Shown: one piece after another, positions 1,338 to 58,946 of the stretch
Position numbering within the stretch: position 1 is the stretch's first letter
How the letters are laid out: the number at the start of each line of letters is the position of its first letter
Assembly (NCBI GenBank): GCA_016188245.1
Contig: JACPIE010000028.1
Coordinates: forward strand, 5,704-69,703
Origin: Candidatus Woesearchaeota archaeon
GTDB lineage: Archaea > Nanobdellota > Nanobdellia > Woesearchaeales > GW2011-AR4
DNA length: 64,000 nucleotides
Direction of reading: 5' to 3'
The notes under the pieces: model-generated
The model's input: only the letters and a program-made list of their open reading frames with translations
Told to the model about the DNA's origin: nothing
The model's database searches: none
Translations under genes and position numbers: made by a program

Positions 1338-1868
1338 TTACTGATTGGAATTGAAAACGGCGACATCTTCATAGACTGGCCCTTCTGCAGTCAAATCTGA
1401 TTTAACCAGCCTGAAACTGCCGATTTCAATTTTTTTGCCTTCAACTTTTGTCTTTTTCAACTTCTCAAGAAACTGTTTTTTGCCTTCAGGATGGTTAACC
1501 CTTGCCAGCGTTATATGGGCTTTGAAATTTTTTTCTTTCCTGAACAATGGACTTAAAGATTCATCAATGTTTTTTTGCAATTCCGAAACTATTTTTTCAG
1601 GGCTGACTCCAACCCAAACAACCTTTACATGCCATCCATCCTGGAAAAAACCAATGTCTCCGAGAAAAACGCCAAATTGTTTATACCTTACACCATTTAA
1701 CCTGCTTATGACATCCCCAATATTATCAGAATGAACTTCTCCCAGAAATTTTAAAGTCATGTGGAAAGATTTTACAAGGCTGAAATCCGCATTTTTGGGC
1801 AAGCGGCTCTGCAATTCAAGAAAGTAACCCTTCAACTCATTGAAATCAACTGCAATAAAAAGCCTCAT
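1338..1868 (-). CDS. thpR: RNA 2',3'-cyclic phosphodiesterase / 2'-5' RNA ligase family (LigT/ThpR)
   Basis: 176 aa with the two HxTx motifs of the 2H phosphoesterase fold (HMTLKFLG and HITLARV). Abuts the next gene (1869). Confidence 0.8.
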   Translation of the reverse strand: MRLFIAVDFNELKGYFLELQSRLPKNADFSLVKSFHMTLKFLGEVHSDNIGDVISRLNGVRYKQFGVFLGDIGFFQDGWHVKVVWVGVSPEKIVSELQKNIDESLSPLFRKEKNFKAHITLARVNHPEGKKQFLEKLKKTKVEGKKIEIGSFRLVKSDLTAEGPVYEDVAVFNSNQ

Positions 1869-3774: not shown

Positions 3775-4743
3775 CTAAATTTTAATCGCCGTAAAATACA
3801 CCCACTCTGCCGTAAAACTTTTTCCATCAGCAAACGGATTGTTGCTTTCAAGCTCCTTAAACAATTTCAATGAAGCAATCGTTATTAATTCATCTCTGTC
3901 CTGTTCCTCTTGTTGAGAAGGCTCTTTGCCTCCAACCTCAGGCAATATTCCAGCTTGCAATCTTTTAACTCTCAAAAAATCAAGCCAATCTTTGTATTTA
4001 ACTTTAATAAGTTTATGATGTGTGCCTATATCGTCAAAACCTGCGTTTTTTAACATCTTTAGATAAACTTCTATACGCCTTGGCTCAGGAAACACAAACT
4101 TACGCTGCACATCTTCATTTTCTATCTTTTCATCAAGTCCTATCCAGTATATTTTGTATTTGACATCTGTGCGTATCAATTCCAAAGCAATTTCATGCAC
4201 CCTTTTAACAGTATCATCAATCATCAATACTCCTTTTTTCCTGCCTTCCCTCATGATATTCCCGCTTTGAAAAGCGAAGCTTCCTCCACGGCGCAATGCG
4301 GCATTTATTCCTAAAAAAGCACTTTTCAGGTCTTGTATCAGGTGAAATGTGTTGGCAGACACCACATGATTTGCAATATTCTCTCCAACTGTCTCTGCAA
4401 GCGTAGCATACCTTTCATCAATCTTATCCAGAACGAAAAACTCAACATGCGGGTTCTTTCCCAGGATTTCATAAGCCTTGCCCAGCCAGGCAGCAGAATT
4501 GTCAACAAGCCAAAGCCTGAAATTTGACTTTACGGTTTTCAAAAAATAAAAGGACAAACCCCCTGTCCCGGCTCCAAAATCAACCACGATATCCTTATCT
4601 TTTACCTTTCCCTGCACTACCCTTATAAGCTCGCTTACATTTTCGACATGCCAGGAAGCATTAATCACAGCATCGTGGTAAGCCGCAGCCCCTCTCGATA
4701 CGGGCTTGCCAGGCTGCCATGTTTTTTCCATCATTTTTTGCAT
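3775..4743 (-). CDS. Class I SAM-dependent methyltransferase
   Basis: Motif I VVDFGAGTGGLSFYF, followed by LVDNS. Track start 4758 is TTG; first ATG is at 4741-4743. Confidence 0.6.
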   Translation of the reverse strand: MQKMMEKTWQPGKPVSRGAAAYHDAVINASWHVENVSELIRVVQGKVKDKDIVVDFGAGTGGLSFYFLKTVKSNFRLWLVDNSAAWLGKAYEILGKNPHVEFFVLDKIDERYATLAETVGENIANHVVSANTFHLIQDLKSAFLGINAALRRGGSFAFQSGNIMREGRKKGVLMIDDTVKRVHEIALELIRTDVKYKIYWIGLDEKIENEDVQRKFVFPEPRRIEVYLKMLKNAGFDDIGTHHKLIKVKYKDWLDFLRVKRLQAGILPEVGGKEPSQQEEQDRDELITIASLKLFKELESNNPFADGKSFTAEWVYFTAIKI

Positions 4744-22183: not shown

Positions 22184-23017
22184 CTATACAACTTTAAAAT
22201 CCGCACATATCCTGTAAAATCCAGGCGCATACTGCCCGCACTTTACAATGTTCAAAATCCTGCATTTTTTCTTTGCTTTCCCGCACGCTCTTTTGATTTT
22301 TTCTTCAGCGGCATTAAGCTCATTCTCATGCAGGAAGATGTAAAAATGAATATTCCCGCCTTTTTTTATGTGCTTCAAAGCCAATCCCAGAAAAGCTTCC
22401 CCTCCTTTCGGCAGCGGCATCAGGATCCTATCAAATTTTTTATTTAGCTTCGGCATAACTTTTCTGGCATCGCCTAAAAACAGCTTTACTTTATTTTCAA
22501 GCTTGTTTTTCTTGATATTTTCCAAAGCGTATCTATGGGCAACTGGATTCATTTCAATCCCGTAAACTTCCCTGCATTCCGAATTTTTGGCAATTACCAG
22601 CGGATAGGCCCCGGAGCCTGAAAACATGACTAAAACAGACTCATTTGGAATGATTAAATCTTCAATCCTTTTCCTTTCATTCGACATTCTCGGGGAAAAA
22701 TATACTTTTTCAACATCAAGCTTTACAAGAACATTGTTTTCCTTGCATACTGTTTCTTTTTTCTTTTCACCTGCAATAACCTTAAGCTTAGGCGTCCTGA
22801 ACTTTCCCGAGTATTTTTTCGTTTTTTTTAGTACAGTCTTTATGTGGCCGTAATTTTCAAGAATCGTCTGCCCGATTAATCTTTCTTTTTTAGAAAGCTC
22901 TTTCGGAAAATCAGAAAAAATCATGATGTCTCCGACTACATCAAAAGAGGAAGGCACCAATTCAAGCTCTTTTTTTGGCAATTTATCTTTTAGGTAAAAT
23001 TTTAGGTTTTGTTTCAT
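22184..23017 (-). CDS. trm5: tRNA (guanine37-N1)-methyltransferase Trm5 (Met-10+ family)
   Basis: FDVVGDIMIF, VLVMFSGSGAYPLVIAK, YGIEMNPVAHRYALENIKKNKL and DRILMPLPKG. Track start is GTG; ATG is at 23015-23017. Confidence 0.8.
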   Translation of the reverse strand: MKQNLKFYLKDKLPKKELELVPSSFDVVGDIMIFSDFPKELSKKERLIGQTILENYGHIKTVLKKTKKYSGKFRTPKLKVIAGEKKKETVCKENNVLVKLDVEKVYFSPRMSNERKRIEDLIIPNESVLVMFSGSGAYPLVIAKNSECREVYGIEMNPVAHRYALENIKKNKLENKVKLFLGDARKVMPKLNKKFDRILMPLPKGGEAFLGLALKHIKKGGNIHFYIFLHENELNAAEEKIKRACGKAKKKCRILNIVKCGQYAPGFYRICADFKVV

Positions 23018-23019
23018 AG

Positions 23020-24057
23020 TCACCCAAAAAACTCCCCCAGCCCTTTCTGCCTTTTTTTCTCTTTTGCCTTAGCCAATCCTTCAATCTGGTTCCTGACCCT
23101 TTCTTCAGAGAAATCATGCTTGTCAACAAGCAGCTTCATTATCTTTTCTTCGTCAATATTTTTCCATTCAAGATGGAAGTTCTCATCAGCAGGCATATTC
23201 CTTATCAGTTCAAATACTTCTTTCCATTCAAACTCAAAAAAATCACTCCATTTGGCATCCTCAAACAATTTTTCAAAATTTGTCCCGTGCTCCCTGACTA
23301 GCTTCAATGCGGTTTTCGGCCCAACACCCTTTATCCCTCCGCCGTTGTAATCAGTCCCGATAAGCATTGCCAACGCCACCAATTGGTCATGGCTGATGCC
23401 CATATGATCAAGATTTTCTTTTAAATCTATCATGTCAGGGCTTATAATCTCAAAACTCAGCTTGTCTTTTCTTTTCTTTTTGCCGGCAATGTTCAGGTTT
23501 CTCACAATCCTTGGGGCTCCAAAAAGCAAAGCATCTGCATCATTTGTAGCCAGTGCAAATGCGTTTCCAGTCTTAACAATAAGGGATGCCTGAGCTTCTG
23601 CTTCAGAAGGCGCTTCAATGACCGGCAAGCCAAAAGCCTCAACAAGCCTTTTTGCCTCGCCAATCATCTCCTCTGTCAGCCTTGAAGTTCTCGATGCATA
23701 CTTTTTCATAAGATCTTCATCAGCCTTTTCCTTTGCCTGCTCAAACTTTTTTTGCGCTTCAATCTTCACTTCCTTTCTTTTTTCAAGCGTCAAATGCTTC
23801 AATTTTGGAGGTTTGCCGTCAAACACAAAAGCGAGATTTATATCGCTTTGGAGCAGGCTTGAAACCCTCGAAAGCAGCCCAATCAGATGGGATGTCACAT
23901 TGCCCTTTGAATCCGTGAGCAAAGTTCCGTCCCTCTGCCTTATGGAACTTAAGAACTGGTAGAGCCACATGGGAGAGTCAACAGCCAAAACTTTATTTTT
24001 AAGCAGCCCTATGTCAATCTGCTTAATTAGCAATAGTTCTGTTAAGGCAACTCCCAT
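23020..24057 (-). CDS. fen: Flap endonuclease 1
   Basis: MGV..L..LL N-terminus, AVDSPMWLYQFLSSIRQRDGTLLTDSKGNVTSHL, and the H3TH region GIKGVGPKTALKLV. C-terminal PIP box QKGLGEFF. Confidence 0.9.
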   Translation of the reverse strand: MGVALTELLLIKQIDIGLLKNKVLAVDSPMWLYQFLSSIRQRDGTLLTDSKGNVTSHLIGLLSRVSSLLQSDINLAFVFDGKPPKLKHLTLEKRKEVKIEAQKKFEQAKEKADEDLMKKYASRTSRLTEEMIGEAKRLVEAFGLPVIEAPSEAEAQASLIVKTGNAFALATNDADALLFGAPRIVRNLNIAGKKKRKDKLSFEIISPDMIDLKENLDHMGISHDQLVALAMLIGTDYNGGGIKGVGPKTALKLVREHGTNFEKLFEDAKWSDFFEFEWKEVFELIRNMPADENFHLEWKNIDEEKIMKLLVDKHDFSEERVRNQIEGLAKAKEKKRQKGLGEFFG

Positions 24058-25016: not shown

Positions 25017-25616
25017 CTATGGCCTTAACCACTTAATCTCATAATAGGTCACATCATTTTCTGCATCAACTATCCCTATCAGCAGCCTTTTTTTTGTAGA
25101 ATGCGCAACACGATTCTTTGCCGCAAATTCATACCACGTCAATACAGACCCTTCATGCACCGGAAAAACAACCCACCTTGCATGGTCTTCTCCTGGCTTC
25201 ACTCCCCTGTCATAAATCCTAAAGTCTGCTCCGAACTTCAATGCCGTCTTTATTATATATCCCCTGTTCCTTATGTCTTTATAGACACAATACCTTACCC
25301 AGAAATTCGGCTCAAATTTTTGCGCTTTTTTCAGGAATTTCTCGAAGCCAACCGGCTTATTCCTCTGGTCATAGGCTATCAGCCTTTTTTTTTCAAGCAG
25401 ATAAACTGACTCTATCAGGGAAAGCTGAACTCTGCCGTCATCCAATAATTCACCATACCTGCTTTGGTTATAGAACTCTCTAGCGTTGTCCGAGCTTTCT
25501 GTTAGCACCCTTTCATTTGAAAGGTATGCATTGACAGGCTCCTTGATTATCTTCTCTTCTTTGGCTTCTTTTTTGGGAAGCACTTCTTCGGCGTCTTCTT
25601 TTTTCTTTGATGTCAT
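25017..25616 (-). CDS. endA: tRNA-splicing endonuclease (single short subunit, about 199 aa)
   Basis: Catalytic C-terminal domain ALKFGADFRIYDRG..HARWVV..HSTKKRLLIGIVD, with a K/E-rich N-terminal extension. Confidence 0.8.
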   Translation of the reverse strand: MTSKKKEDAEEVLPKKEAKEEKIIKEPVNAYLSNERVLTESSDNAREFYNQSRYGELLDDGRVQLSLIESVYLLEKKRLIAYDQRNKPVGFEKFLKKAQKFEPNFWVRYCVYKDIRNRGYIIKTALKFGADFRIYDRGVKPGEDHARWVVFPVHEGSVLTWYEFAAKNRVAHSTKKRLLIGIVDAENDVTYYEIKWLRP

Positions 25617-25715: not shown

Positions 25716-26606
25716 ATGCAAATAACATTCCTTGGAACTTCTTCAATGGTTCCGACAAAAGAGAGAAACCAGATGGCTGTTTTTCTTAGCTATGGCTCTG
25801 AAGGAATCTTGTTTGACTGCGGGGAAGGCACCCAAAGGCAGCTCAAGATAGCGGGCATAAGCCTGACAAAGGCAACAAAAATCTTAATAAGCCACTGGCA
25901 CGGCGACCATGTTCTCGGATTGCCTGGCTTGATTCAGACATTGAGCTCAATGGATTACAGCGGAAAGCTGGAAATTTATGGCCCAACAGGAACAAAAAAA
26001 AGAATGGAAATGATGTTCGAGGCGTTCATCTTCGACAAGAGGCTGGACTTTATCGTCAAAGAAGTGAAAAGCGGGATTTTTTTTGAAAATAATGATTTTC
26101 AGCTGGAAGCACATGGGCTGGAGCACGGAATTGAGACGCTAGGCTATAGGTTTGTTGAAAAAGACAAACGAAAAATAGACATGAAAAAAGTAAGGAAGCT
26201 GGGCATTCCGCCTGGGCCACTGCTCGGCAAACTTCAGGACGGAAAAAGCATAGAATTCAACGGAAAAAAGATTGATGCAGATGAAGCTACTTACACTGAA
26301 GCCGGCAAAAAAATCGCATATATAACTGACACGCTGCATTGCGACAATTGCTATAAAATAGCCCAAGATGCAGATTTGCTCATGTGCGAGGCAACTTACT
26401 CCTCCAAGCTTGAAAGCAAAGGAGAAGAATACGGGCACATGACTGCAAAGCAGGCAGGACAGATTGCAAACAAGTCGAATGCAAAGCAGCTTGTCTTAAT
26501 TCATTTCAGCGCAAGATACAAAAACACCCAGGAATTAGAGGAGGATGCAAGGGACATTTTTGACAATGTGATATGCGCAAAGGATTTCATGAAAATTGAT
26601 TTATAA
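25716..26606 (+). CDS. rnz: Ribonuclease Z (tRNA 3' endonuclease)
   Basis: MQITFLGTSS..PTKERN, ILISHWHGDHVLGLPGLIQT (HxHxDH) and a C-terminal LIHFS motif. Confidence 0.85.
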   Translation: MQITFLGTSSMVPTKERNQMAVFLSYGSEGILFDCGEGTQRQLKIAGISLTKATKILISHWHGDHVLGLPGLIQTLSSMDYSGKLEIYGPTGTKKRMEMMFEAFIFDKRLDFIVKEVKSGIFFENNDFQLEAHGLEHGIETLGYRFVEKDKRKIDMKKVRKLGIPPGPLLGKLQDGKSIEFNGKKIDADEATYTEAGKKIAYITDTLHCDNCYKIAQDADLLMCEATYSSKLESKGEEYGHMTAKQAGQIANKSNAKQLVLIHFSARYKNTQELEEDARDIFDNVICAKDFMKIDL

Positions 26607-31993: not shown

Positions 31994-32068
31994 TACTAGA
32001 GTACTTACGTTAGGCGAACTTTCCCAAATTAAGAAAATTTATAAATCAAAAAATCTTCTTTTTTGTTA

Positions 32069-32749
32069 ATGACAAATACTAAATGGAAAGCTTTTGAGGA
32101 ACTTGTCAAAAAAATTTATGATATATTCCTATCAGAATACGATAAAAATGTTAAGCACGATATTAAAATTAAAGGAAAATCTGGGCTGGAACATCAAATT
32201 GATGTTTTTGTTGAAATTTTTATGCCAATTCTAACAATTAAAGACATAATAGACTGTAAACATTGGAATAGCAGAGTTAAAAAATCTGACGTAAAAGAAA
32301 TTTATACTACTAGGGATGAGGTCAATGCTAATAGGGCTACAATAATTTCTCGTAAGGGATTTCAAAGTGGTGCAATTCAGTTTGCTAAATTTAACGGGAT
32401 TAATTTATATAAAATTCTGAAACCAGAAGAATTGGGATTGCACACTGCTGTTTTTAAGGTAGAAGGCATAAAAGAAGAAGTCATTAAACTTAATGTTCAA
32501 TTAGAAGCTGAAAATCCCGAACAATTAAATCAATTATTTTCAAAATTTCATAAGAAGAAAAATTATAATGAGGTCACGATTTATAACCAAAAAGGAGAAG
32601 CGATAGCAAATGTTTTCGATTTGATGGATGATGCTTTTAGTCATTTGCGAAAAATTCCAGAACCAGGTTTAGAATCTACGACAAGGTTTTTAAATAGTTA
32701 CATGATAATAGATGGCAAGAAAAGAAAGGTTAACTTTATTGAAATATGA
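32069..32749 (+). CDS. Restriction endonuclease-like protein (Mrr_cat type PD-(D/E)xK N-terminal domain + unknown C-terminal domain)
   Basis: WKAFEELVKKIY, GKSGLEHQIDVFVE, IIDCKHW and ATIISRKGFQSGAIQFAKFNGINLY follow the Mrr catalytic-domain pattern. Track start is TTG; ATG is at 32069. Confidence 0.6.
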   Translation: MTNTKWKAFEELVKKIYDIFLSEYDKNVKHDIKIKGKSGLEHQIDVFVEIFMPILTIKDIIDCKHWNSRVKKSDVKEIYTTRDEVNANRATIISRKGFQSGAIQFAKFNGINLYKILKPEELGLHTAVFKVEGIKEEVIKLNVQLEAENPEQLNQLFSKFHKKKNYNEVTIYNQKGEAIANVFDLMDDAFSHLRKIPEPGLESTTRFLNSYMIIDGKKRKVNFIEI

Positions 32750-32879
32750 ATTCAAAAGAGACCAATAAAAACAGAGAGATCTCAAGACATTAAAAATATA
32801 AAATTGCTCATAAACGATGTAGTTAATAACAAAATGTTTCTTGTTGAAAAACCAATTGGATTTGATTTGTTGGAAAAGG

Positions 32880-33647
32880 ATGGAATTTAAATGGGTAGTG
32901 AATAAAGAGGATATAGAAAGATTAAATAATTTCGTAGATAAATTTAAAGGAAATAATTTTGTGAAAGGTAGGGTTAAGAGGAACTTATCCGACAGTATAC
33001 CTCAATTTACTGAATCTGAATTTTGGAAATGGATGATTGGCTGCCTCTTGACAACACAACAGAGATCTGGTCCAAACAGCAGAATTTCTAAATTCTTAAT
33101 AATCACCCCTTTCCCCTTAAGCTATGATTCTTGTAAAAAGACTAAAAATCTTAAGAATTATTCATATGAGGTGCTTACCAAATCAAGAGGAATAAGAAGA
33201 ACAAACAAAATCAGTGAAGAAATTAAATTTAATTTTGATTGGTTGGTGAATGATGGTTGGGAAAAGATTATCAACATTTCAGAAAAGCTTATGGAAGCGA
33301 GGAAACAAAAGCCTTCAACAGAAAACATTAAGGTAGAACGAGAAGCATGCTTACTTGTTCAAGATTTGAAGGGGATAGGACCTAAGCAATCAAGGAATTT
33401 ATGGCAGGCTATGGGTTTAACAAGATATGAGATACCAATTGATAGCAGAATTATAAAATGGTTAAATAAAAATGAATTTCCATTTACTTTATCACCATCT
33501 GGATTATCGGATGAGAACTATTATCAGATGTTAATGGGGGGTATACAGGAATGGTGTGAAAGAGCGGATATTTTTCCTTGCATTTTTGATGCAGCAATAT
33601 TCTCAAGCTATGATGAAGAATGGCCAGAAGATTATGAACTTTGGTGA
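32880..33647 (+). CDS. HhH-GPD superfamily DNA glycosylase-like protein
   Basis: LKGIGPKQSRNLWQAMGLTRYEIPIDSRIIKWL is a helix-hairpin-helix plus a downstream Asp, as in EndoIII/OGG/AGOG enzymes. Track start is TTG; ATG is at 32880. Confidence 0.5.
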   Translation: MEFKWVVNKEDIERLNNFVDKFKGNNFVKGRVKRNLSDSIPQFTESEFWKWMIGCLLTTQQRSGPNSRISKFLIITPFPLSYDSCKKTKNLKNYSYEVLTKSRGIRRTNKISEEIKFNFDWLVNDGWEKIINISEKLMEARKQKPSTENIKVEREACLLVQDLKGIGPKQSRNLWQAMGLTRYEIPIDSRIIKWLNKNEFPFTLSPSGLSDENYYQMLMGGIQEWCERADIFPCIFDAAIFSSYDEEWPEDYELW

Positions 33648-33674
33648 ATATTAAAATTAATTTTTTCAGAAAAA

Positions 33675-34247
33675 ATGAAAAATAAAAAACTCACAATTGA
33701 AGAAAATATAAAAAAATTAAATTATTTTACTAGTATAGCTAAGGAAGCCGAGAAATCTGAGGATTTTCCAACAAAATTGGGTGCCTTGACTATTTATGCC
33801 GGAATGGTGGATTTCTCTGCTATACAAGCAGCAAAAGTTCTCGAACAAGTAATACTAAAATCACAGATAAAATTAAACAAAAGACCCTCATTTAAACCAA
33901 AATCTGATGAATATTTTTATAATTTTCAAGTCCCTAGCAGAAGAATAGGTAGAGTAATAAGCTCTCATTTACCTTTCAGACCCTTAGCTGGAACTAATGA
34001 AGAAAAAGCTCAGGAAATTACTTCTAAAGCTAAAAAATTTTTAGAATCACTGAATAACTTTCTTAATTATCGGAACACTCTGGTTCACCATTTAGGAAAT
34101 TCTAAGTTTAGTAAAGAATATTTATACGAACTACTAAATAAAGCAATATCAAAGTACAAAGAATATGTTATGGCTCATGAAGAATTTATGGACATAATAG
34201 CACCCTACACTCTTACTAAAGAACAAAGAGAAGAACTTTACAAATAG
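33675..34247 (+). CDS. Hypothetical all-helical protein with HEPN-like RNxxxH motif
   Basis: 190 aa; LNYRNTLVHHLGN fits the R-N-x3-H motif of HEPN RNases. No other recognisable feature. Confidence 0.35.
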   Translation: MKNKKLTIEENIKKLNYFTSIAKEAEKSEDFPTKLGALTIYAGMVDFSAIQAAKVLEQVILKSQIKLNKRPSFKPKSDEYFYNFQVPSRRIGRVISSHLPFRPLAGTNEEKAQEITSKAKKFLESLNNFLNYRNTLVHHLGNSKFSKEYLYELLNKAISKYKEYVMAHEEFMDIIAPYTLTKEQREELYK

Positions 34248-34332
34248 AAAATTAGAAAAGATGATATTACTATTATCAATTCAGCTATTATGTTCTCAAA
34301 AATGCCATCTAAAGTTATCATTTTTAGTTAAA

Positions 34333-34995
34333 TCAACCTATATAATCTGGCTTTTCTTTCTTGTTTTTTCTCTCTTGATATTTTCTAATGAAATATCTTA
34401 TTAACCAACGTGAGCCTGCGTATATTGTACATATTAAAGTCAATAGCGTTGTCCATGTCACAAAAAAGGTCAATTTATTTGTGAAATCTTTAGAGCTTTC
34501 AATAATGTAATCCAAGAGTGAAGGATCAGGAATTCGGATAAAATTATAGTAAGTTCCATTAAATCCAACATAAAGCCATGTAGGAATTGTCCGGATTTGT
34601 ATTGTGGTAGTCCCATTAACTAATTTTAGATTTTTTTCATGTAGTTCTTTTCCATTGCCAAAATCATAATACAAATCAGCAGAACAATCTTGGCATGGAA
34701 CACAAACAGGTTCAAAACTACTACATAAGTTTAACGTGATATGTAGCAAATCTCTTTCGCCAAAATTTTCATTATATGCTGCATCAATGTTATATGCTGG
34801 TACTATAGACATCATGCCGGGAATTGGAATCGCTACTCTATCTCCACTCCACCATAAAAATTGCTGATAAAAGAGAAGAGAAACCATCACGAATGAAAGA
34901 AATGCCGTCAGTAAAATTCTTTTTTCTGTAGGAATACCTCTAACAAACTCGTGCATTTTCTCAGCATTGGTTTTATATTTCTTCTTTTTCTTCAT
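34333..34995 (-). CDS. Hypothetical bitopic membrane protein with Cys-rich extracytoplasmic domain
   Basis: 220 aa; TM near the N-terminus and TM near the C-terminus; CSSFEPVCVPCQDCS cluster. Last gene of a 3-gene minus-strand cassette. Confidence 0.35.
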   Translation of the reverse strand: MKKKKKYKTNAEKMHEFVRGIPTEKRILLTAFLSFVMVSLLFYQQFLWWSGDRVAIPIPGMMSIVPAYNIDAAYNENFGERDLLHITLNLCSSFEPVCVPCQDCSADLYYDFGNGKELHEKNLKLVNGTTTIQIRTIPTWLYVGFNGTYYNFIRIPDPSLLDYIIESSKDFTNKLTFFVTWTTLLTLICTIYAGSRWLIRYFIRKYQERKNKKEKPDYIG

Positions 34996-35296
34996 TTATG
35001 TATTCTAGAGCTCTTTTTTTATTCCATTTATGTACTCCTTTTTCTTTAAATTCCACTAATAATGTTGTATTACTAAAATATCGTCCACAAGTATATGCTA
35101 ATAAAACTAAAACAATTATAAAAAAAGGGTATATGACCCAAGTTTCTCCACTTAAGATGGCTCTTAAAAAATCAAAAAAAGTTATGATAAGTACAACTAA
35201 AAAACTAACCATAAAAGCTTGATAAACACTCAACTGTCTCTTTAATTCTGATAATTTTGATTTTTTTACAATATTTAGCATTTTTTCTGCATTCAT
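34973..35296 (-). CDS. Hypothetical small membrane protein (2 TM)
   Basis: 107 aa; overlaps the downstream gene by 23 nt and lies 9 nt after the upstream gene. Confidence 0.3.
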   Translation of the reverse strand: MNAEKMLNIVKKSKLSELKRQLSVYQAFMVSFLVVLIITFFDFLRAILSGETWVIYPFFIIVLVLLAYTCGRYFSNTTLLVEFKEKGVHKWNKKRALEYINEEKEEI

Positions 35297-35305
35297 TTGT
35301 CAAAA

Positions 35306-35986
35306 TCATTTAGTTTCTCTTTTTATAAAATTAACAAATTTATAACCGAATTCATTTTGCCTAAACTCGAGATTTGGTTTATGGAAAAAATGATCATATG
35401 GCATAGAACCAGTATTTGCTTCTCTTTTCAATTGTTCAAATGATTCCCCAACCTTTTCGAAAGCCCGACCAATCGAATCAATATCCCTTTGTACTAAGCC
35501 GTGTCCAGACAGCACATTTATCAAGGATTTTTCTCGTGGATTTAAAAAAGATTCATTAATTATAGTATGATCTTCCTCGTAGATACTTAATAGATAGACA
35601 AGTTCTTCCTCAGATAGTCTATCTAAAATATTAAGAAACGAGAGTTTTTCGTCAAAAGAAATTTTCTTTTTATAAGAATTTATTGCCAAATTTAAATATC
35701 TCTTTCGTTTTTCTTCTCTATTCTCAAAAGCTACCTTTTGAACAAGTTCTCGGATAAATTGTATATTTTCCGCAGATTTCCTAGCATCATCAATCATAAA
35801 CAAAACATCGACTTCATTGATAAATTCTTCCCACCACTCTTTATTTCTTTTACTAAGATATTCAAAGCCCTGAACTAGCAAGGCAAAAGATCCTGTTGTT
35901 GCCCCAACAATCCCCCCAAATAGAATGTCTATTATTGGTGCTACAGTCTTAAAGACTTCAATTCCAAACTCTTTTTTCTCATTCAT
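35306..35986 (-). CDS. Hypothetical protein (N-terminal Gly-rich hydrophobic segment, helical body)
   Basis: 226 aa with ATG start; first gene of the minus-strand cassette. No family recognised. Confidence 0.4.
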   Translation of the reverse strand: MNEKKEFGIEVFKTVAPIIDILFGGIVGATTGSFALLVQGFEYLSKRNKEWWEEFINEVDVLFMIDDARKSAENIQFIRELVQKVAFENREEKRKRYLNLAINSYKKKISFDEKLSFLNILDRLSEEELVYLLSIYEEDHTIINESFLNPREKSLINVLSGHGLVQRDIDSIGRAFEKVGESFEQLKREANTGSMPYDHFFHKPNLEFRQNEFGYKFVNFIKRETK

Positions 35987-36158
35987 TTTTATTTAGTTGG
36001 TTTCTAATCCTTTAAAAAGGCTTCCATACATTACACTGAAAATGTTTGACATAACGTTAACAGAGTATGCAAATATGAGAAACTTACCTATCCAAAAATC
36101 AGTAACCTTTAAATTCCCTTATTCATTCTATTTTCTATAGTAAAAGGGATTGATAATC

Positions 36159-36320
36159 ATGCTTGATTGGGATAAAAAGCAATGGAAATTATTCTGGCTA
36201 GGTAGTACTGGATTTTTCATTATAACTGGTGTTTTTGGGATAATGAGTCAAGTTTGGTATACGATTGCAATCTCGGTAATTATGACATCTATCTCAATTA
36301 TACAATATAAAAAAATTTAA
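36159..36320 (+). CDS. Small membrane protein (53 aa, 2 TM), below the ORF-track cutoff
   Basis: ATG 36159, TAA 36318-36320; translates to MLDWDKKQWKLFWLGSTGFFIITGVFGIMSQVWYTIAISVIMTSISIIQYKKI. Ends 2 nt before the next ATG. Confidence 0.25.
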   Translation: MLDWDKKQWKLFWLGSTGFFIITGVFGIMSQVWYTIAISVIMTSISIIQYKKI

Positions 36321-36322
36321 TC

Positions 36323-37429
36323 ATGAGTAAAGAAGAGCTAGATAGGAAAATTTCTGAATTCAGGGATTTTTTAGAGAAAAATAATTTTCCTGTTGTGAAT
36401 TTAATATTTGAAAATTTTCTTAGTGGGAAAATAAAAAACAAATTCTTAGATTTAGTTAAATTATCAAAAAAAGTAGATACCTCAAAACAGGAAAACGAAA
36501 TAAAATTTGATTTAATAAAACTACTCGATAGAATCGTTAGATTAGATCCAACAAGAATTAAGAAATATTATCTTTGGGATATTGCTGTTGAAGAAAAAAC
36601 AGATTTTGTATTTGAGAAATTCCCAGAGGTAAAAGAATTATTGGACGAAGATGGGCTTATTCAAATACCTTACAACTCTGATTTAAATAAGAATGGATTC
36701 AGATACAAGGATAGTTATCTAATTTTTGAGAATGCTTACAGCAGAAATTTTCATCTAACACAATGGTTAATAGAAAATTGGAAAAATAATTTTGTACTAA
36801 AACTTCCGATTAACAAAAACTGTTTAGGAGTTTCTGAAACAAGGAGACAAGTAGAATTACTTTCTCATTGGCAAGGTCCTAAAACAATTAATCAAATTAA
36901 AGAATCTTTAGCGGGAAAGGAATTTGTCGTGAAAGGCCCAAGTTTTTTTGATGCACCTTTGATGGATAAAACAGAGTTCTTATTTAATTCACGAGATAAT
37001 AAGTGGCATTTGCAAATTGAGGAGTTGTTACCTCTAGACGGCATTGAACTTGGAACAATAATTAATTATCAAGACAAAGAACATAAATTTTATACTAGGT
37101 ATCTACATGCAATTACTAACAAAAATCTGTCAGAATGTTTTCATATGGATGGTGGAATAAGAGTTTACAAAACTTATGAAAATTTTGAAAGGAGGAATAA
37201 ATCTGAATTAAAAGATTCTAGCATAACAAGTTACTCAGATAGATATAAATTTTTTAGAGTAGATTCAGAAAGTGGAATTTCATCCTTTCAAGAGATTATT
37301 GGTTTGTTTTTCATAGCAAACCCTTATGTTTTAGAGTTTTTTGATGGAGAAAGTAATTTCACCAAAGATTTAGAAAAAAACAGAACAGGCATTTTAGAAA
37401 TAGATTTTAAGTATAAAAAATTCAATTAA
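36323..37429 (+). CDS. Hypothetical soluble protein, 368 aa
   Basis: Long ATG-initiated ORF in an A+T-rich context where stop codons are frequent. No family recognised. Confidence 0.45.
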   Translation: MSKEELDRKISEFRDFLEKNNFPVVNLIFENFLSGKIKNKFLDLVKLSKKVDTSKQENEIKFDLIKLLDRIVRLDPTRIKKYYLWDIAVEEKTDFVFEKFPEVKELLDEDGLIQIPYNSDLNKNGFRYKDSYLIFENAYSRNFHLTQWLIENWKNNFVLKLPINKNCLGVSETRRQVELLSHWQGPKTINQIKESLAGKEFVVKGPSFFDAPLMDKTEFLFNSRDNKWHLQIEELLPLDGIELGTIINYQDKEHKFYTRYLHAITNKNLSECFHMDGGIRVYKTYENFERRNKSELKDSSITSYSDRYKFFRVDSESGISSFQEIIGLFFIANPYVLEFFDGESNFTKDLEKNRTGILEIDFKYKKFN

Positions 37430-37483
37430 TTAACAAGTTAAATAAAGTAATCCTTAAATACATATTGATATTTGTAAAAATTT

Positions 37484-38407
37484 ATGAATAATATAATAAT
37501 AAATGCTTCGAATGGAATCAACGCTTCTATATCTATTTTAAACAACAATCCACCTATAAATTATTCTATAATAGAAAGTATAGCAAATAATGCTGTTTCA
37601 ACTTTAACAAGTGCTAATACGGCTTTTATTGATCCTTACTGGTTTTATAGTGCCGCTGCACAATCTGCCGCAGCAATTGTTGGTCTTATGGGTGCTTTCT
37701 TAACCACTAAAATCATAAGTATACATAGTCAGAAAAAACAATTAAAACAGAATATTTCGACTTACAAAAATCAGATAGAGTTTATAGAAAAAGAAATAAA
37801 ACCATTTCAAGAATGGATAAAAAAAATTGATGAGGATGAAGAAAGAAAAAATGTTATAAAATTCTTGGATGAAATAAAAGAAACAATAAATCTAGATAAT
37901 CCCCCAGAGTTTGAATCAATTCTGAAAGAAGCAAGAGAATCTGAAGATTTTAAAGACATCAGTGAAGAAATTCTAAAAGAAGAGTACAATGAAGAATTTT
38001 TTAATTCAGTAAGAAACTATCGCCGTACGCCACCTTTTGCTAGGGGACTCTCTAACTTATTCACTTCAAATTTAGACGCAACTAGAGATAAATGGAATAG
38101 GTATCGAGAATATTCTGATTATATAGATAAAAAATTAGTAGAAGTTGAATCACTCAAAAAATTAATTTCCATAAAAGAAGATGAAATAAAAAGTCTAGTA
38201 ACACTAAAGGAGTTAAGAGATAACATTTTTTCACTAATAATATTTTCTATATTGGGTGTTGTTGTCCCATTAACTTTATTAATGTTGAATTATGAGACAA
38301 TGCTTAAATGGCGATTAATCGTTCTTGCTCTTTTTATTTTTGGATTAAGTCTTGTTGTTGTTACTATTAGCAATGAAATAAGAAAAATATTTTCAAGCAA
38401 ATATTGA
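37484..38407 (+). CDS. Hypothetical membrane protein: TM - long coiled coil - two C-terminal TM segments
   Basis: 307 aa; hydrophobic AAAQSAAAIVGLMGAFLTTKII, an E/K-rich heptad-like middle, and a C-terminal LIIFSILGVVVPLTLLML / LIVLALFIFGLSLVVV. Confidence 0.4.
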   Translation: MNNIIINASNGINASISILNNNPPINYSIIESIANNAVSTLTSANTAFIDPYWFYSAAAQSAAAIVGLMGAFLTTKIISIHSQKKQLKQNISTYKNQIEFIEKEIKPFQEWIKKIDEDEERKNVIKFLDEIKETINLDNPPEFESILKEARESEDFKDISEEILKEEYNEEFFNSVRNYRRTPPFARGLSNLFTSNLDATRDKWNRYREYSDYIDKKLVEVESLKKLISIKEDEIKSLVTLKELRDNIFSLIIFSILGVVVPLTLLMLNYETMLKWRLIVLALFIFGLSLVVVTISNEIRKIFSSKY

Positions 38408-38427
38408 TACATAAAACAAATAAATAG

Positions 38428-38525
38428 TCTAACCTCATTATCCGTTAGTCTTTCTTTCTCTTAAGAGAAACAGTAATCGAAGGGGCGCAGAAAAAGTGAA
38501 TATAACACTAGTTTCACGAACTTTT
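38428..38525 (-). repeat. Right (compact) copy of the block-conserved inverted element
   Basis: Reverse complements of blocks D (38428-38443), C (38483-38497), B (38498-38508) and A (38511-38525). The C-D spacer contains a 16-nt perfect palindrome TTTCTCTTAAGAGAAA (38455-38470). Confidence 0.5.
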
Positions 38526-38557
38526 ACTTTATTTTCATACGTAAATTTTCCATTTTT

Positions 38558-40768
38558 CTAACTCTCCTTATACTCCCCTTCGACAACGTCCTTTATCTGC
38601 TTTGCCTTTAAAGGGCCTATCTTGCCGACTTCCTGCAGCTCCTTTTCAGAGGCATTCACAATGTTTTTTATTGTCTTGAAATGCTTCAGCAAGGGCTTTG
38701 CCAAAGTAAGGTTTATGCCGGGCAGCGAGCTTACAAAATACTCCTGCTGCTCTTTTAATGTGGCTGGCTTTCTGTCGGCATGCAGGCTGAAGTCCTTGCC
38801 CGTTTCGTCCTGCTCCCTTCTTGCTATTATCTGCAGCAAGGCAGCAGTTTCCTTAGAGCTTCTTGTCTGCACAATCGGGATGCCGTAGCTTACGGCAATC
38901 GTGGCAAGCATACCCAGGATTGAATTTTGATGCACGTTCCTCACGCTGTAGATGTCTTGGTTTCCTTCTATGACCACCATGGGCCTTTCAAAATTATTCT
39001 TGAGATTTTTTATCTGCTCAAGCAGCCTTCCGTCAATTATGCTGTCAACAAAATCGTGCACTGCTTTGACTTCAATGCCGCACCTTGAAGAAACAATATA
39101 ATCCGCATAATCCAGCTTTTCCAGGCTTATGGAAACATCATTTTCAGCAAGCTCTTTTAAAATGCCGCTTCCCTTTTCCCTATAGTCGGCAAATATCCTT
39201 AACCTGCCGGCGAACCTGTTCACCGGAACCTCTTTTTTAACATTCAATGAAAGATTCAGCTTTTTCCTCAAATTTTCCAGGTGCCTGTGCATCTTCTTTT
39301 CATTATGGTGCGCAACCCACCTGTAGGCTTCATCTCTTGTGCCTTCTGCCATAAGAATAATGACTCTGCCCTTATCCTGCCTTCCTGTCCTGCCTCTCCT
39401 CTGTATGCTCCTTATCGCGCTTGGAATAGGCTCGTAAAAAATAACCAAGTCCACTTTTGGAATATCCAGCCCTTCCTCCCCGATTGAAGTTGCCACAATG
39501 ACATTAAACAAGCCCTGCCTGAAATCGTCAAGCATCTGCTTCTGCTCTTTCTGGCTCAATCCAGTGTCATTTTTTTTCTGCTGCCCGACAAAAATATTGG
39601 CCTTGACGTTTGGAATCATGTTAAGCTTTCTCATAACATCAAGGGCGTTATCCCTGTATTGGTTGAAAATCATTATTTTTACATTTTCATTTTGCCTGAC
39701 TTCATTTTCGACAATATTCTGCAGCTCTATCAGCTTCGGGTGCTCTACTTTTTCCTCGTGCAAAATCCTTGCCTTGACCATCGCAGACTTGAAGTTTGAA
39801 TCGCCCATTACGGATTTTATCGCCTTGGTTTTGCCTGTCCTTGATTCGGCGATAAGCTTTTCAAAGTACTTGTGCAGCGCGGCAATTCCCTGGCTTTCAA
39901 GCAACTCCAGGGCATGATGCACCTTCATCATTTCAGCAAGCAAGGAAATTGAGTTCCATACAACAAAATCCTTTTCGCCGGAAGATATCTTTCCTCTCAG
40001 CTCAGCCTGCAGCTGCAGCAAGTCAGACTTTGAGGCAAACTTGGAATTCTGCCTCTGCAGGATGCCCCATTGCCTGAGCTTTTCAAACCTCTCTTTCAAA
40101 AACAGCAGCAAAAATTTTTGTATGTCTATGAATACCTTTGGAAGCTTAACTTTGACCCAGTCTATCTGCATCTCCTGTATGTACGGCTTTACATCAGGAT
40201 CTTCGTCAGTCCTTACTTCAATTCCCTCAATGAAAAGATTCCTGCAGACATCCTCTATCTTGGCCATATCGCTTCCGGGAGAGGCTGTCAAGGCAATTAT
40301 CCTCGGAAATCTTGAAAGCTTCATGAACTGCTTCGCGACAAAAACATAAGAATAATCCCCAACAGCGCGATGGGCCTCGTCAATCCCAAGCAGGCAAACT
40401 TCTTCAAGATTTATCCTGCTGCTTATTATGTCATTTTCCAGGCCTTGGGGAGTTGAGAAAATTATTTTTGATTTGCCCCAGAGCTCCTGCCTTTTTTCCG
40501 GGCTTACCATTCCTGTAAAAACTGCCATATCACTGCCATCGATGACAAAATGCTCCCTGAAAACATTTATGTACTGCTCAATCAAGGGTTTTGTGGGGCC
40601 TATGAAAAGCACCTTTGAATTCGGATACTGCTTGAGCCTTTGCGCAGCAAGCATAAGGAAAATGTTGGTCTTGCCCATGCCTGTAGGCAGCACAACCAAA
40701 GTGTTCTTTTCAGCGGCTGTTGCAAGAATTGTCTGCTGGTACAGCCTTGGCTCAAAGTTCTTAATCAT
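38558..40768 (-). CDS. hef: Hef: helicase-associated endonuclease for fork-structured DNA (SF2 helicase + ERCC4 nuclease + HhH2)
   Basis: LPTGMGKT, GIDEAHRAVG, TSIGEEGLDIP, QRRGRTGR, then ERCC4 YADYIVSSRCGIEVK and the C-terminal LPGINLTLAKPLL HhH pair. Track start is TTG; ATG is at 40766-40768. Confidence 0.85.
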   Translation of the reverse strand: MIKNFEPRLYQQTILATAAEKNTLVVLPTGMGKTNIFLMLAAQRLKQYPNSKVLFIGPTKPLIEQYINVFREHFVIDGSDMAVFTGMVSPEKRQELWGKSKIIFSTPQGLENDIISSRINLEEVCLLGIDEAHRAVGDYSYVFVAKQFMKLSRFPRIIALTASPGSDMAKIEDVCRNLFIEGIEVRTDEDPDVKPYIQEMQIDWVKVKLPKVFIDIQKFLLLFLKERFEKLRQWGILQRQNSKFASKSDLLQLQAELRGKISSGEKDFVVWNSISLLAEMMKVHHALELLESQGIAALHKYFEKLIAESRTGKTKAIKSVMGDSNFKSAMVKARILHEEKVEHPKLIELQNIVENEVRQNENVKIMIFNQYRDNALDVMRKLNMIPNVKANIFVGQQKKNDTGLSQKEQKQMLDDFRQGLFNVIVATSIGEEGLDIPKVDLVIFYEPIPSAIRSIQRRGRTGRQDKGRVIILMAEGTRDEAYRWVAHHNEKKMHRHLENLRKKLNLSLNVKKEVPVNRFAGRLRIFADYREKGSGILKELAENDVSISLEKLDYADYIVSSRCGIEVKAVHDFVDSIIDGRLLEQIKNLKNNFERPMVVIEGNQDIYSVRNVHQNSILGMLATIAVSYGIPIVQTRSSKETAALLQIIARREQDETGKDFSLHADRKPATLKEQQEYFVSSLPGINLTLAKPLLKHFKTIKNIVNASEKELQEVGKIGPLKAKQIKDVVEGEYKES

Positions 40769-48458: not shown

Positions 48459-48617
48459 TGCGGGGAGCAGGATTCGAACCTGCGAAGGCACTAAGCCAAT
48501 AGATGGCTCGCAAGTACTTCATCAGCTTTTTGAGCCTCGTTACTTCAAACTTGAGTTTGGATGTTTAGCACCCTAATGCCAAAACGCTATCCCGTTTGGC
48601 CGCTCCGGCATCCCCGC
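48459..48617 (-). tRNA. tRNA gene with about 80 nt of intervening sequence; anticodon unresolved (Leu-like acceptor/D-arm)
   Basis: Reverse complement has acceptor GCGGGGA/UCCCCGC plus discriminator A, D-arm CCG-GAGCGGCCAAA-CGG and T-arm GCAGG-UUCGAAU-CCUGC. Several alternative anticodon-arm-like hairpins lie between D- and T-arms. Confidence 0.6.
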
Positions 48618-48816
48618 ATAGGGTTTAGAATTAAAATTGGCTTTAAAAACATTGCTGAAAAATCAATTACGATAGTAATATCAAAAATCAATCACGAGAG
48701 CGACTTTGTGTTTCATCAGGTTAAGAAAGTAATCCGCTTTGGACAGAGCATTAAATTAATAGGAGAGCCAGAACTTGTGGCAGGCAGTGAGGGTGGGCAC
48801 AAGATATTGTTGCGAA

Positions 48817-57643: not shown

Positions 57644-57686
57644 AAAAATCCAAACTTATTTATACACCTTAAATTTGATTTCTGTT

Positions 57687-58946
57687 ATGAAAAATGTTAA
57701 TGCAGTGCTTGATGAAGCCCTTACAGGCATCCAGCCGGACAAAAATTACGAGAAAGAAATATTCGAGAAGCTCAGCCTGATAATAAAAAAAATAAACCAT
57801 AACCAGAAAAGCATCAAGGCAGTCCTCGGCGGCTCCGGGGCAAAAGGGACATGGCTCAAAACTTTCGATGCGGACATATTTGTCCTGTTCAATTACGGCA
57901 GATTCAAGGGCAAAAGCGACAAACTTTCAGATATCCTGGAAAAAATGCTGAAAAGGAAATTCAAGAATATTGCAAGGCTCCATGGCTCTAGGGACTATTT
58001 CCAAATTAACCAGGGAAAATTCACTTTTGAAATTGTGCCGATATTAAGGATAACAAGGGCAGAGCAGGCAAAAAACATAACTGACGTGAGCCCGCTGCAC
58101 TCGAACTGGGTTAAAAAGCACAAAAAACTGGTTGATGACATCAAGCTGACAAAGCAGTTTTGCCAGGCCCGGGGAATTTACGGGGCAGAAAGCTATATAA
58201 TGGGATTTTCAGGATATGTGTGCGAAATCCTGACAGTTTATTACGGCTCATTTCTTAGCCTGATAAAAAATGCCGCGAAATGGCAGGACAAAACAGTTGT
58301 GGATGCGCAAAAATATTACAAGGGGAAGGATGTTTTCAGGCTTGTCAACACGTCAAAGCTGGCCTCTCCGCTTATAGTCATAGACCCTGTCCAAAAAGAC
58401 AGGAACGCTGCAGCAGCCCTGAGCCGGGAAAAATTCGAGGCCTTCAGGAAAGCGGCAAATGAATTTTTAAAAAAGCCATCAAGAAATTTTTTCATTAAAA
58501 AGGACATGAAATCTGCATTTTTAGAAGAAAAATCAAAAAATACCAAGCTCATAGCAGTCAATGCAGGGCCTTTGCCGGGGAAAACAGATGTCATCGGCAG
58601 CAAACTGCTGAAGATTTATGAATTTTTAAAAGAGCAGCTGCAAAAAAACGGATTTAAGCCAATCAAGTCCGGCTGGGAATGGGACAAGAAAAACGAAGCC
58701 GTTTTCTATTTTATTTTAGATAAAATGCCTTTGCCAAAAACTGCCGAGGCAGAGGGCCCCCCGCTTAAGATGGAGCAGCATGCTGAAAATTTCAGGAAGA
58801 TTCACAGGAAAACATTTGTAAAAAACAACAAGATTTATGCAATTGAAAACAGGGAGTTTACATTGCCGGAGCAGTTAGTCAAAAACCTGATAAAAAATCG
58901 ATTTATCATAGAAAGGGCAAAACATATTAAAATAAAAATTCTCTAA
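57687..58946 (+). CDS. cca: CCA-adding tRNA nucleotidyltransferase (archaeal class I)
   Basis: LGGSGAKGTWLKTFDADIFVLF is the class I NTase motif. Track start is TTG; ATG is at 57687. Confidence 0.85.
   Translation: MKNVNAVLDEALTGIQPDKNYEKEIFEKLSLIIKKINHNQKSIKAVLGGSGAKGTWLKTFDADIFVLFNYGRFKGKSDKLSDILEKMLKRKFKNIARLHGSRDYFQINQGKFTFEIVPILRITRAEQAKNITDVSPLHSNWVKKHKKLVDDIKLTKQFCQARGIYGAESYIMGFSGYVCEILTVYYGSFLSLIKNAAKWQDKTVVDAQKYYKGKDVFRLVNTSKLASPLIVIDPVQKDRNAAAALSREKFEAFRKAANEFLKKPSRNFFIKKDMKSAFLEEKSKNTKLIAVNAGPLPGKTDVIGSKLLKIYEFLKEQLQKNGFKPIKSGWEWDKKNEAVFYFILDKMPLPKTAEAEGPPLKMEQHAENFRKIHRKTFVKNNKIYAIENREFTLPEQLVKNLIKNRFIIERAKHIKIKIL

Follow-up and report, generated by a model that had tools for sequence, protein, structure and literature searches.

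Multi-intron tRNA genes are well described in the Thermoproteales, where they were found with SPLITS and tRNAscan-SE 2.0 (PMC4033280, PMC8450103). These genes carry several introns of the bulge-helix-bulge (BHB) type, some of them at non-canonical positions, and neighboring introns can be spaced so closely that one has to be removed before the motif of the next can form. In Methanopyrus kandleri, the pre-tRNA-Glu(UUC) combines a canonical intron at position 37/38 with a D-loop intron of the relaxed HBh' (helix-bulge-helix) type, and the endonuclease of this organism is a heterotetramer that has none of the known specificity loops (PMC5829648). Disrupted tRNA genes are also known from DPANN archaea, including Woesearchaeota RBG_13_36_6 (PMC5829648). 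Here we describe a 159-nucleotide (nt) locus on the minus strand (48459..48617) of a 64-kb stretch of archaeal DNA, hereafter the window, which is very probably a functional tRNA-Leu(CAA) gene of a Woesearchaeota-like DPANN archaeon containing two BHB-type introns.

The gene is a fresh example of the known multi-intron, disrupted tRNA genes, and it shares both lineage and phenomenon with the DPANN cases. Unlike the Thermoproteales genes it belongs to a DPANN host, one of its introns lies at position 30/31 and leaves a micro-exon of 7 nt, and the endonuclease encoded in the window is of the single-unit alpha type, in contrast to the (alpha-beta)2 enzyme with its Crenarchaea-specific loop. The HBh' intron lies in the anticodon stem and not in the D loop as it does in M. 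kandleri, and some orthologs of the window gene have an intron in the D loop, roughly at the site used in M. kandleri. Gene disruption in DPANN has been linked to the L3 loop of alpha4-type enzymes (PMC5829648), whereas the window enzyme has no insertion in its catalytic domain relative to that of Methanocaldococcus jannaschii.

Exons, introns and splice junctions

The structure of the gene was resolved by comparison with fifty orthologous genes (loci labelled L001 and so on). Read from 48617 to 48459, the minus strand is GCGGGGAUGCCGGAGCGGCCAAACGGGAUAG-CGUUUUGGCAUUAGGGUGCUAAACAUCCAA-ACUCAAG-UUUGAAGUAACGAGGCUCAAAAAGCUGAUGAAGUACUUGCGAGCC-AUCUAUUGGCUUAGUGCCUUCGCAGGUUCGAAUCCUGCUCCCCGCA, which divides into three exons and two introns. 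Exon 1 (31 nt, 48587..48617) supplies tRNA positions 1-30, comprising the 5' strand of the acceptor stem and the D arm together with G26 and, from the anticodon stem, A27-G30. It is followed by intron 1 (30 nt, 48557..48586), which interrupts the anticodon stem at the non-canonical position 30/31, and by exon 2 (48550..48556), the micro-exon ACUCAAG that contributes A31 and nucleotides C32-G37 of the anticodon loop with the anticodon CAA. Intron 2 (45 nt, 48505..48549) occupies the canonical position 37/38, and exon 3 (46 nt, 48459..48504) provides positions 38-73. It opens with A38 and UCUAU, the 3' half of the anticodon stem, continues through the long variable arm GGC-UUAGU-GCC and the T arm, and closes with the 3' strand of the acceptor stem and A73; CCA is not encoded. 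The remaining parts are an acceptor stem GCGGGGA/UCCCCGC with discriminator A, a D stem CCG/CGG of 3 base pairs (bp) with an 11-nt loop, and a T arm GCAGG-UUCGAAU-CCUGC. The elements listed in the first-pass annotation (acceptor stem, discriminator, D arm, T arm, four anticodon-arm-like hairpins termed a to d, a 9-bp helix and a UGAUGA box) are all present on this strand. Its estimate of about 80 nt of extra sequence was correct in that the surplus is real, the exact figure being 75 nt over a mature RNA of 84 nt. It had also proposed multiple or nested introns, and of these the first alternative holds, with the two introns appearing as separate units that lie side by side, 7 nt apart and non-nested.

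Deletion of both introns in silico yields an 84-nt RNA that ARAGORN identifies as tRNA-Leu(CAA), long variable arm and A73 included, in agreement with the earlier suggestion of a Leu-type gene. This spliced RNA forms a flawless cloverleaf in which all stems are paired with a single G-U wobble, and it carries the features of a class II tRNA-Leu, that is, the variable arm GGC-UUAGU-GCC, A73 and the anticodon CAA. When only one intron is deleted, regardless of which, ARAGORN in its intron mode (-i) reports Leu(CAA) with the remaining one as the intron.

The ortholog comparison that the first-pass annotation had recommended fixed the junctions and led to the same tRNA-Leu(CAA) with two introns. 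Orthologous genes range from 84 to 230 nt in length and in most loci hold the position upstream of the ACT-domain and RNase J genes. The intronless ortholog L058 reads ...CCAGA-CUCAAGA-UCUGG-UCCCUUAGUGGGUUC... and is detected both by the Rfam tRNA model (61.5 bits) and by ARAGORN as Leu(CAA). In three orthologs (L004, L006 and L025) the sole intron is the one at 37/38, inserted directly after CUCAAG, and of the two introns L001 has only that at 30/31. The second insertion, shared by the window and 24 other genes, lies between nucleotides 4 and 5 of the 5' strand of the anticodon stem. Because orthologs exist with neither intron or with one or the other, every junction of the window gene is bracketed, and since no nucleotides are shared across the junctions, their positions are unambiguous given the mature sequence. 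Hairpin (c), whose loop CUCAAG had been described as one nucleotide short, thereby turns out to contain the true anticodon loop, with the missing seventh nucleotide, A38, located beyond intron 2. The flanks of this hairpin come from the 3' end of intron 1 and the 5' end of intron 2; its stem CCAAA/UUUGA has no compensatory support, and nucleotide -1 of intron 1 varies freely.

Splicing motifs and alternative readings of the locus

The first-pass annotation stated that no single model gives canonical BHB geometry. Intron 1 contradicts this, as it has an exact core of 3-nt bulge, 4-bp helix and 3-nt bulge that is extended by a 4-bp h' helix. The central H helix pairs GGAU of exon 1 (48592-48589; G25-G26-A27-U28) with AUCC (48562-48559; intron nucleotides -6 to -3). 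With cleavage drawn after the second nucleotide of each bulge (arrow), the bulges are AG↓C and AA↓A, and they are followed on the intron side by the h' helix GUUU/AAAC and an inner hairpin GGCA/UGCU. The inner hairpin resembles the variable arm. An outer h helix is absent, with only G24:C32 able to pair, so that intron 1 is best classified, from its predicted pairing, as the relaxed HBh' type, a motif frequent at non-canonical positions (PMC5829648). All 25 orthologs that possess this intron retain an H helix with 4 of 4 bp, in the forms GGAU/AUCC, GGAU/GUCC, GGGU/ACCC, GGAC/GUCC, GGAC/GUCU and GGCC/GGCU. In a junction-anchored alignment of these 25 genes 93% of the cells are paired, as opposed to 27-55% when the 3' partner columns are slid. 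Changes on both sides are seen in 6 of 8 pairs, and the observed covariation score was reached by 0 of 500 shuffles. The local minimum-energy fold of the intron 1 region alone also consists of exactly H, bulge and h'.

Intron 2 appears to carry a relaxed version of the core seen in intron 1. Its H helix joins the exonic CUCA (C32-U33-C34-A35) to CGAG through 3 bp and an A.C mismatch, and most relatives have UGAG or UGGG on the 3' side, which restores 4 of 4 bp. The 3' bulge CC↓A38 has the correct form. The 5' bulge is enlarged to a 6-nt loop, AG↓UUUG, which leads into a 5-bp helix AAGUA/UACUU. The outer h helix corresponds to the anticodon stem; in the primary transcript intron 1 splits this stem, and it is complete only once that intron has been removed.

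Several observations weigh against a functional two-intron tRNA-Leu(CAA) gene. The motif of intron 2 in the window is imperfect on account of the A.C mismatch in H and the 6-nt 5' loop, and a thermodynamic fold of the precursor spliced at intron 1 recovered neither this motif nor a cloverleaf. The minimum-energy fold of the whole 159-nt sequence likewise contains no cloverleaf, and we used neither fold as evidence. Intron 1 has no outer h helix, and strict alpha4 endonucleases are reported to be inefficient on HBh' motifs (PMC5829648). The window endonuclease is loop-less, with neither the Nanoarchaeum equitans nor the ARMAN-2 insertion around the catalytic histidine, and yet it is found beside an HBh' intron. 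Finally, the splicing events, the sequence in which they take place and the ends of the mature RNA are predictions from the DNA.

The locus is opaque to simple tRNA finders. Default ARAGORN found no tRNA across the entire 64-kb window, Rfam at its gathering threshold gave no match at the locus, and relaxing the Rfam tRNA model to E<=10 recovered only the T arm with 14.5 bits. ARAGORN had been proposed as a check, and it settled the matter only in part: the default mode was silent, the intron mode gave a forced model, and Leu(CAA) emerged once the introns had been removed. The forced model, reported by ARAGORN -i in runs on the locus and on the whole window, is a tRNA-Gly(GCC) with a single 77-nt anticodon-loop intron at 33/34, built on the same GAUAG/CUAUU stem. 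We rejected it since ARAGORN places one intron at most and the model is a product of that limit. It would replace the near-universal U33 with A33 and leave position 26 unfilled, it has no BHB at the proposed junctions, and the class II variable arm and A73 fit Leu and not Gly; the intronless and one-intron orthologs, moreover, all read ...AGA-CUCAAGA-UCU.... A tRNA-Gly(GCC) at this locus is thus hardly conceivable. The failure of standard tools, together with the imperfect motif of intron 2, might be expected of a degenerating tRNA gene that has acquired insertions, as the first-pass annotation had considered. This is very improbable in light of the exon sequences, which show 0 mismatches over 84 positions, exon 1 included, to the genes of seven other species (L002, L005, L009, L012, L017, L019 and L023), in which the introns have diverged to 77-87% (intron 1) and 78-91% (intron 2) identity with the window. 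The helices of intron 1 are preserved by compensatory changes, the spliced RNA folds as a perfect cloverleaf, and the syntenic location is retained across the order. The promoter is conserved as well: the TATA-like box TTTTTAAAG (48641..48649, minus strand) lies 24-32 nt upstream of the first tRNA base, and a TTTTTAAA box occurs at this same distance in the window and most orthologs. Collectively these data show that constraint on the exons exceeds that on the introns and that the gene is not decaying.

The other three hairpins of the first-pass annotation, (a) with UUG, (b) with UAG and (d) with CUA as the anticodon, the last a possible amber suppressor, can all be drawn, and for (d) many orthologs allow the 5 nt at the end of intron 2 to pair with the 5 nt that begin the variable arm. 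Nevertheless none of them yields a cloverleaf with BHB-flanked introns. Hairpins (a) and (b) lie wholly or partly within intron 1, and the loop sequence of this intron is unconserved. Hairpin (d) would have U37, its loop is the 3' strand of the anticodon stem, 3 of its 5 pairs arise automatically once the H helix is given, and its two further pairs do not hold consistently from one ortholog to the next. These hairpins are helices made partly of intron sequence that span exon-intron boundaries, and we see almost no chance that any of them is an anticodon arm. The 9-bp complementarity noted earlier, GGCAUUAGG with CUUAGUGCC, connects intron 1 with the variable arm (48563-48571 with 48474-48482, minus strand). 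A corresponding match of 8-9 nt including G.U, between RGGYGCUAR in intron 1 and UUAGUGCCU in the variable arm, is present in 19 of 25 orthologs, a figure equaled by 2-9% of shuffles; its variation consists entirely of transitions opposite G or U and is therefore non-discriminating.

Kink-turn and antisense stretch of intron 2

Box C/D guides carried by introns are known from the pre-tRNA-Trp of Euryarchaeota (PMC2584109, PMC11408192) and from the tRNA-Met of N. equitans (PMC3491384). Intron 2 of the window gene contains a predicted kink-turn (48519..48540, minus strand) composed of a D'-like ACGA, a hairpin GGCU-CAAAA-AGCU, a 3-nt bulge GAU and GA, and flanked by the helix AAGUA (48545-48541)/UACUU (48516-48512). 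One strand has a GA set directly against a short stem, the opposite strand has the 3-nt bulge together with GA, and this is the layout of a box D'/C' motif. The UGAUGA sequence, rather than serving as box C in a complete C/D RNA, is the bulged strand of this single conserved kink-turn. The pattern NUGA, hairpin of 3-7 bp, NAU-GA was found in 37 of the 46 long 37/38 introns of the synteny set, in which the hairpin varies by compensatory changes and the second and third bulge nucleotides (A, U) hardly vary, although these two positions were left open by the detection rule. A larger pooled scan found the design in 114 of 139 entries, some of them non-tRNA chance matches. When intron 2 was shuffled, 3% of the shuffles gave the kink-turn pattern and 0.25% gave it with an NAU bulge. 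As the pattern is only mildly unlikely in a single sequence, the evidence for the kink-turn is its conservation. The kink-turn is likely a binding site for L7Ae, as judged from its motif.

Upstream of the D'-like box, guide positions g7-g3 read UUGAG in 26 of 37 synteny-derived orthologs. This is complementary to C32-A36 and places C34 opposite the fifth base (N+5). L053 is one example of a lineage in which the antisense stretch is intact. We then pooled hits from a scan of metagenome contigs (L081-L200), in whose search pattern exon position 31 and intron position g2 had been left free, with the genome loci (L001-L080), which gave 89 distinct genes having both the kink-turn and the UUGAG register. 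Positions 31 and g2 are paired in 87 of these (A:U in 76, G:C in 6, C:G in 5) and mismatched in 2. Formation of the covarying 31:g2 pair is incompatible with the anticodon-stem pair 31:39, and a second conformation of the precursor therefore appears to be under selection. The window copy, UUUGAAGUA directly followed by ACGA, has an A opposite C34, so that the register is broken and antisense pairing of C34 at the fifth position is absent here; in the nearest relatives of the window the antisense stretch is eroded further.

These observations raise a possibility that concerns intron 2 only and would add to the tRNA-Leu(CAA) assignment, namely that the intron of this family is a minimal guide of the box C'/D' type with one kink-turn, which before splicing pairs in cis with A31-G37 and directs 2'-O-methylation of the wobble nucleotide C34, as the pre-tRNA-Trp intron does. 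The conserved kink-turn, the placement of C34 by UUGAG and the pairing of two positions that the search had left free all favor it, and trans-acting C/D small RNAs for C34 of tRNA-Leu(CAA) have been predicted in Pyrococcus (PMC7994747, PMC7668247). Against it, the duplex is only 6-7 bp long and the intron would constitute a half-mer: in the window and ortholog sequences that were read, no terminal box C (RUGAUGA) or box D (CUGA) and no second GA/GA motif or guide was found near the intron ends. The intron thus resembles the Trp and Met guides in having a kink-turn within a 37/38 intron and an antisense to the anticodon loop, with orthologs placing C34 at N+5, and differs from them in the missing terminal C/D pair, the single kink-turn, the short duplex, the host tRNA and the register lost from the window. 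We therefore regard guide activity as a doubtful though conceivable property of the family, and operation of the window copy, given the A against C34 and the more eroded state of its closest relatives, as unlikely. A rough tblastn probe for fibrillarin and L7Ae gave no match in the sequence analyzed, which is uninformative as the host genome was sampled as 64 kb only. A 1.5-Mb scan for the same combination of kink-turn and cis-antisense in other tRNAs returned only chance matches in coding regions.

Processing, intron turnover and genomic context

Transcription of the gene would start from the TATA-type promoter. Intron 1 is predicted to fold alone as a helix-bulge-helix by borrowing G25-U28 of the D stem and anticodon stem. 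The motifs of the two introns are mutually exclusive because A27-U28 are used by the H helix of intron 1 and the anticodon stem is needed by intron 2, and the simplest order would thus be removal of intron 1 first, which would complete the anticodon stem and so supply the relaxed motif of intron 2 with its outer helix. The same situation is described for closely spaced introns in the tRNAscan-SE 2.0 paper (PMC8450103). The endonuclease encoded in the window would cleave each intron at its pair of 3-nt bulges, after which the exons would be joined by an RNA ligase. The expected product is an 84-nt class II tRNA, to which CCA would then be added by a CCA-adding enzyme; an archaeal enzyme of this kind, needed because the tRNA gene does not encode CCA, is present at 57675..58946 (plus strand).

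The window encodes a tRNA-intron (splicing) endonuclease of 199 amino acids and the single-unit alpha type (25017..25616, minus strand; Pfam tRNA_int_endo_N and tRNA_int_endo), which is the enzyme expected, from its sequence, to cut both introns. Its best matches among solved structures are the N. equitans alpha unit (E = 2e-36) and the M. jannaschii alpha4 enzyme (E = 5e-33), with a gap-free alignment to the latter over the catalytic domain. Two insertions are missing from it, the Lys-rich one that precedes the catalytic His in N. equitans (GVIPKKGKRSEREH versus GVKPGEDH) and the 5-residue one of the ARMAN-2 alpha unit. In the literature, cleavage of relaxed motifs is tied to specificity loops (PMC5829648, PMC3239211, PMC12397907), and a loop-less alpha-type endonuclease beside HBh'-type introns is unexpected. 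A second endonuclease subunit may be encoded elsewhere in the genome. Other tRNA-processing genes in the window are a Trm5/TYW2 methyltransferase (22184-23023, minus strand), an RNase Z-like metallo-beta-lactamase (25716-26606, plus strand) and a LigT-like 2H phosphoesterase (1338-1868, minus strand).

Turnover of introns in the tRNA-Leu(CAA) gene appears to be very fast when orthologs are compared. Reviews give three introns as the maximum per archaeal tRNA gene (PMC4033280, PMC8450103). The ortholog in L021 (5480-5709, contig CAZGEW010000015.1) is 230 nt long and has five BHB-type introns, located at approximately 15/16 (38 nt), 21/22 (20 nt), 30/31 (30 nt) and 37/38 (45 nt), with the fifth, of 13 nt, in the T loop. 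Their H helices have 3-4 of 4 bp, the usual promoter box is present, and removal of all five leaves 84 nt that ARAGORN calls Leu(CAA). A T-loop intron of 124 nt is found in L001 (5675-6100), and T-arm introns of 28-31 nt in L003 (3175-3368), L028 (1025-1300) and L045 (4060-4330). Introns at 15/16 occur in L074 (3041-3207) and L027 (3251-3423), and D-loop introns at 21/22 in about ten loci. In L023 (~4690-4740) and L005 (~3960-4007), the two closest relatives with exons identical to those of the window, the promoter box is located ~45 nt further upstream and is followed by GCGGG, 43 nt and GCGGGGAUGCC. This suggests an extra acceptor-stem intron (H = UGCG/CGCG) that the window gene lacks. Similar duplicated 5' ends are seen in L036, L050, L027 and L043.

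The genes flanking the tRNA encode an ACT-domain protein, an archaeal RNase J and PCNA. A search with RNase J retrieved 80 syntenic loci, all from Woesearchaeota or Nanoarchaeota (DPANN) assemblies, some of which carry the depositor label "uncultured Methanosarcinales". The order of the tRNA gene upstream of the ACT-domain gene and RNase J is kept in dozens of these genomes, across the order, and the tRNA-like stretch is accordingly no chance feature. Loci L002-L009 derive from groundwater samples. PCNA, RNase J and the Woesearchaeota relatives together point to a Woesearchaeota-like DPANN archaeon as the host. A neighboring tRNA with the anticodon loop UUCCCAA (Gly-CCC type) and the gene start ACGGCUGUG is found in L006 (3265-3336, minus strand), L009, L025 (742-858, minus strand), L033 (2219-2379, minus strand), L038, L062, L063 and L067. 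It varies from 71 to 161 nt across species with species-dependent introns, and the window has no copy. Elsewhere in the window, positions 32001-40000 have a G+C content of 30-34%, compared with ~40% in the rest, and contain a Mrr-type restriction endonuclease domain (32063-32749) beside several open reading frames with no Pfam match; this region may be a foreign island.

A tool that iterates over BHB motifs would probably resolve the window gene; the BHB models of tRNAscan-SE 2.0 were trained on other phyla (PMC8450103). Default finders would make such a genome look devoid of tRNA-Leu(CAA). Predicted tRNA sets of DPANN genomes are incomplete and manual curation has been urged (PMC5829648), and loci such as this one explain that incompleteness. 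More unusual than the window gene itself are the one-kink-turn intron with its covarying antisense, the five-intron gene of L021, and a loop-less endonuclease in a lineage rich in non-canonical introns. With relaxed non-canonical introns and a plain alpha-type endonuclease on the same stretch, one enzyme and one substrate would suffice for a direct test of whether intron diversity is linked to specificity loops, as has been proposed. If the guide proposal were true, intron-borne guides would extend beyond tRNA-Trp and tRNA-Met to tRNA-Leu(CAA) as a third tRNA, here for the first time without terminal C/D boxes, which would widen the known range of such guides. The window copy and the clade with the 30/31 intron would then have been caught losing the guide, with the kink-turn kept and the antisense register broken. 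Taken together, the orthologs document in condensed form how a single gene has gained and lost introns, with zero to five introns at no fewer than eight positions.

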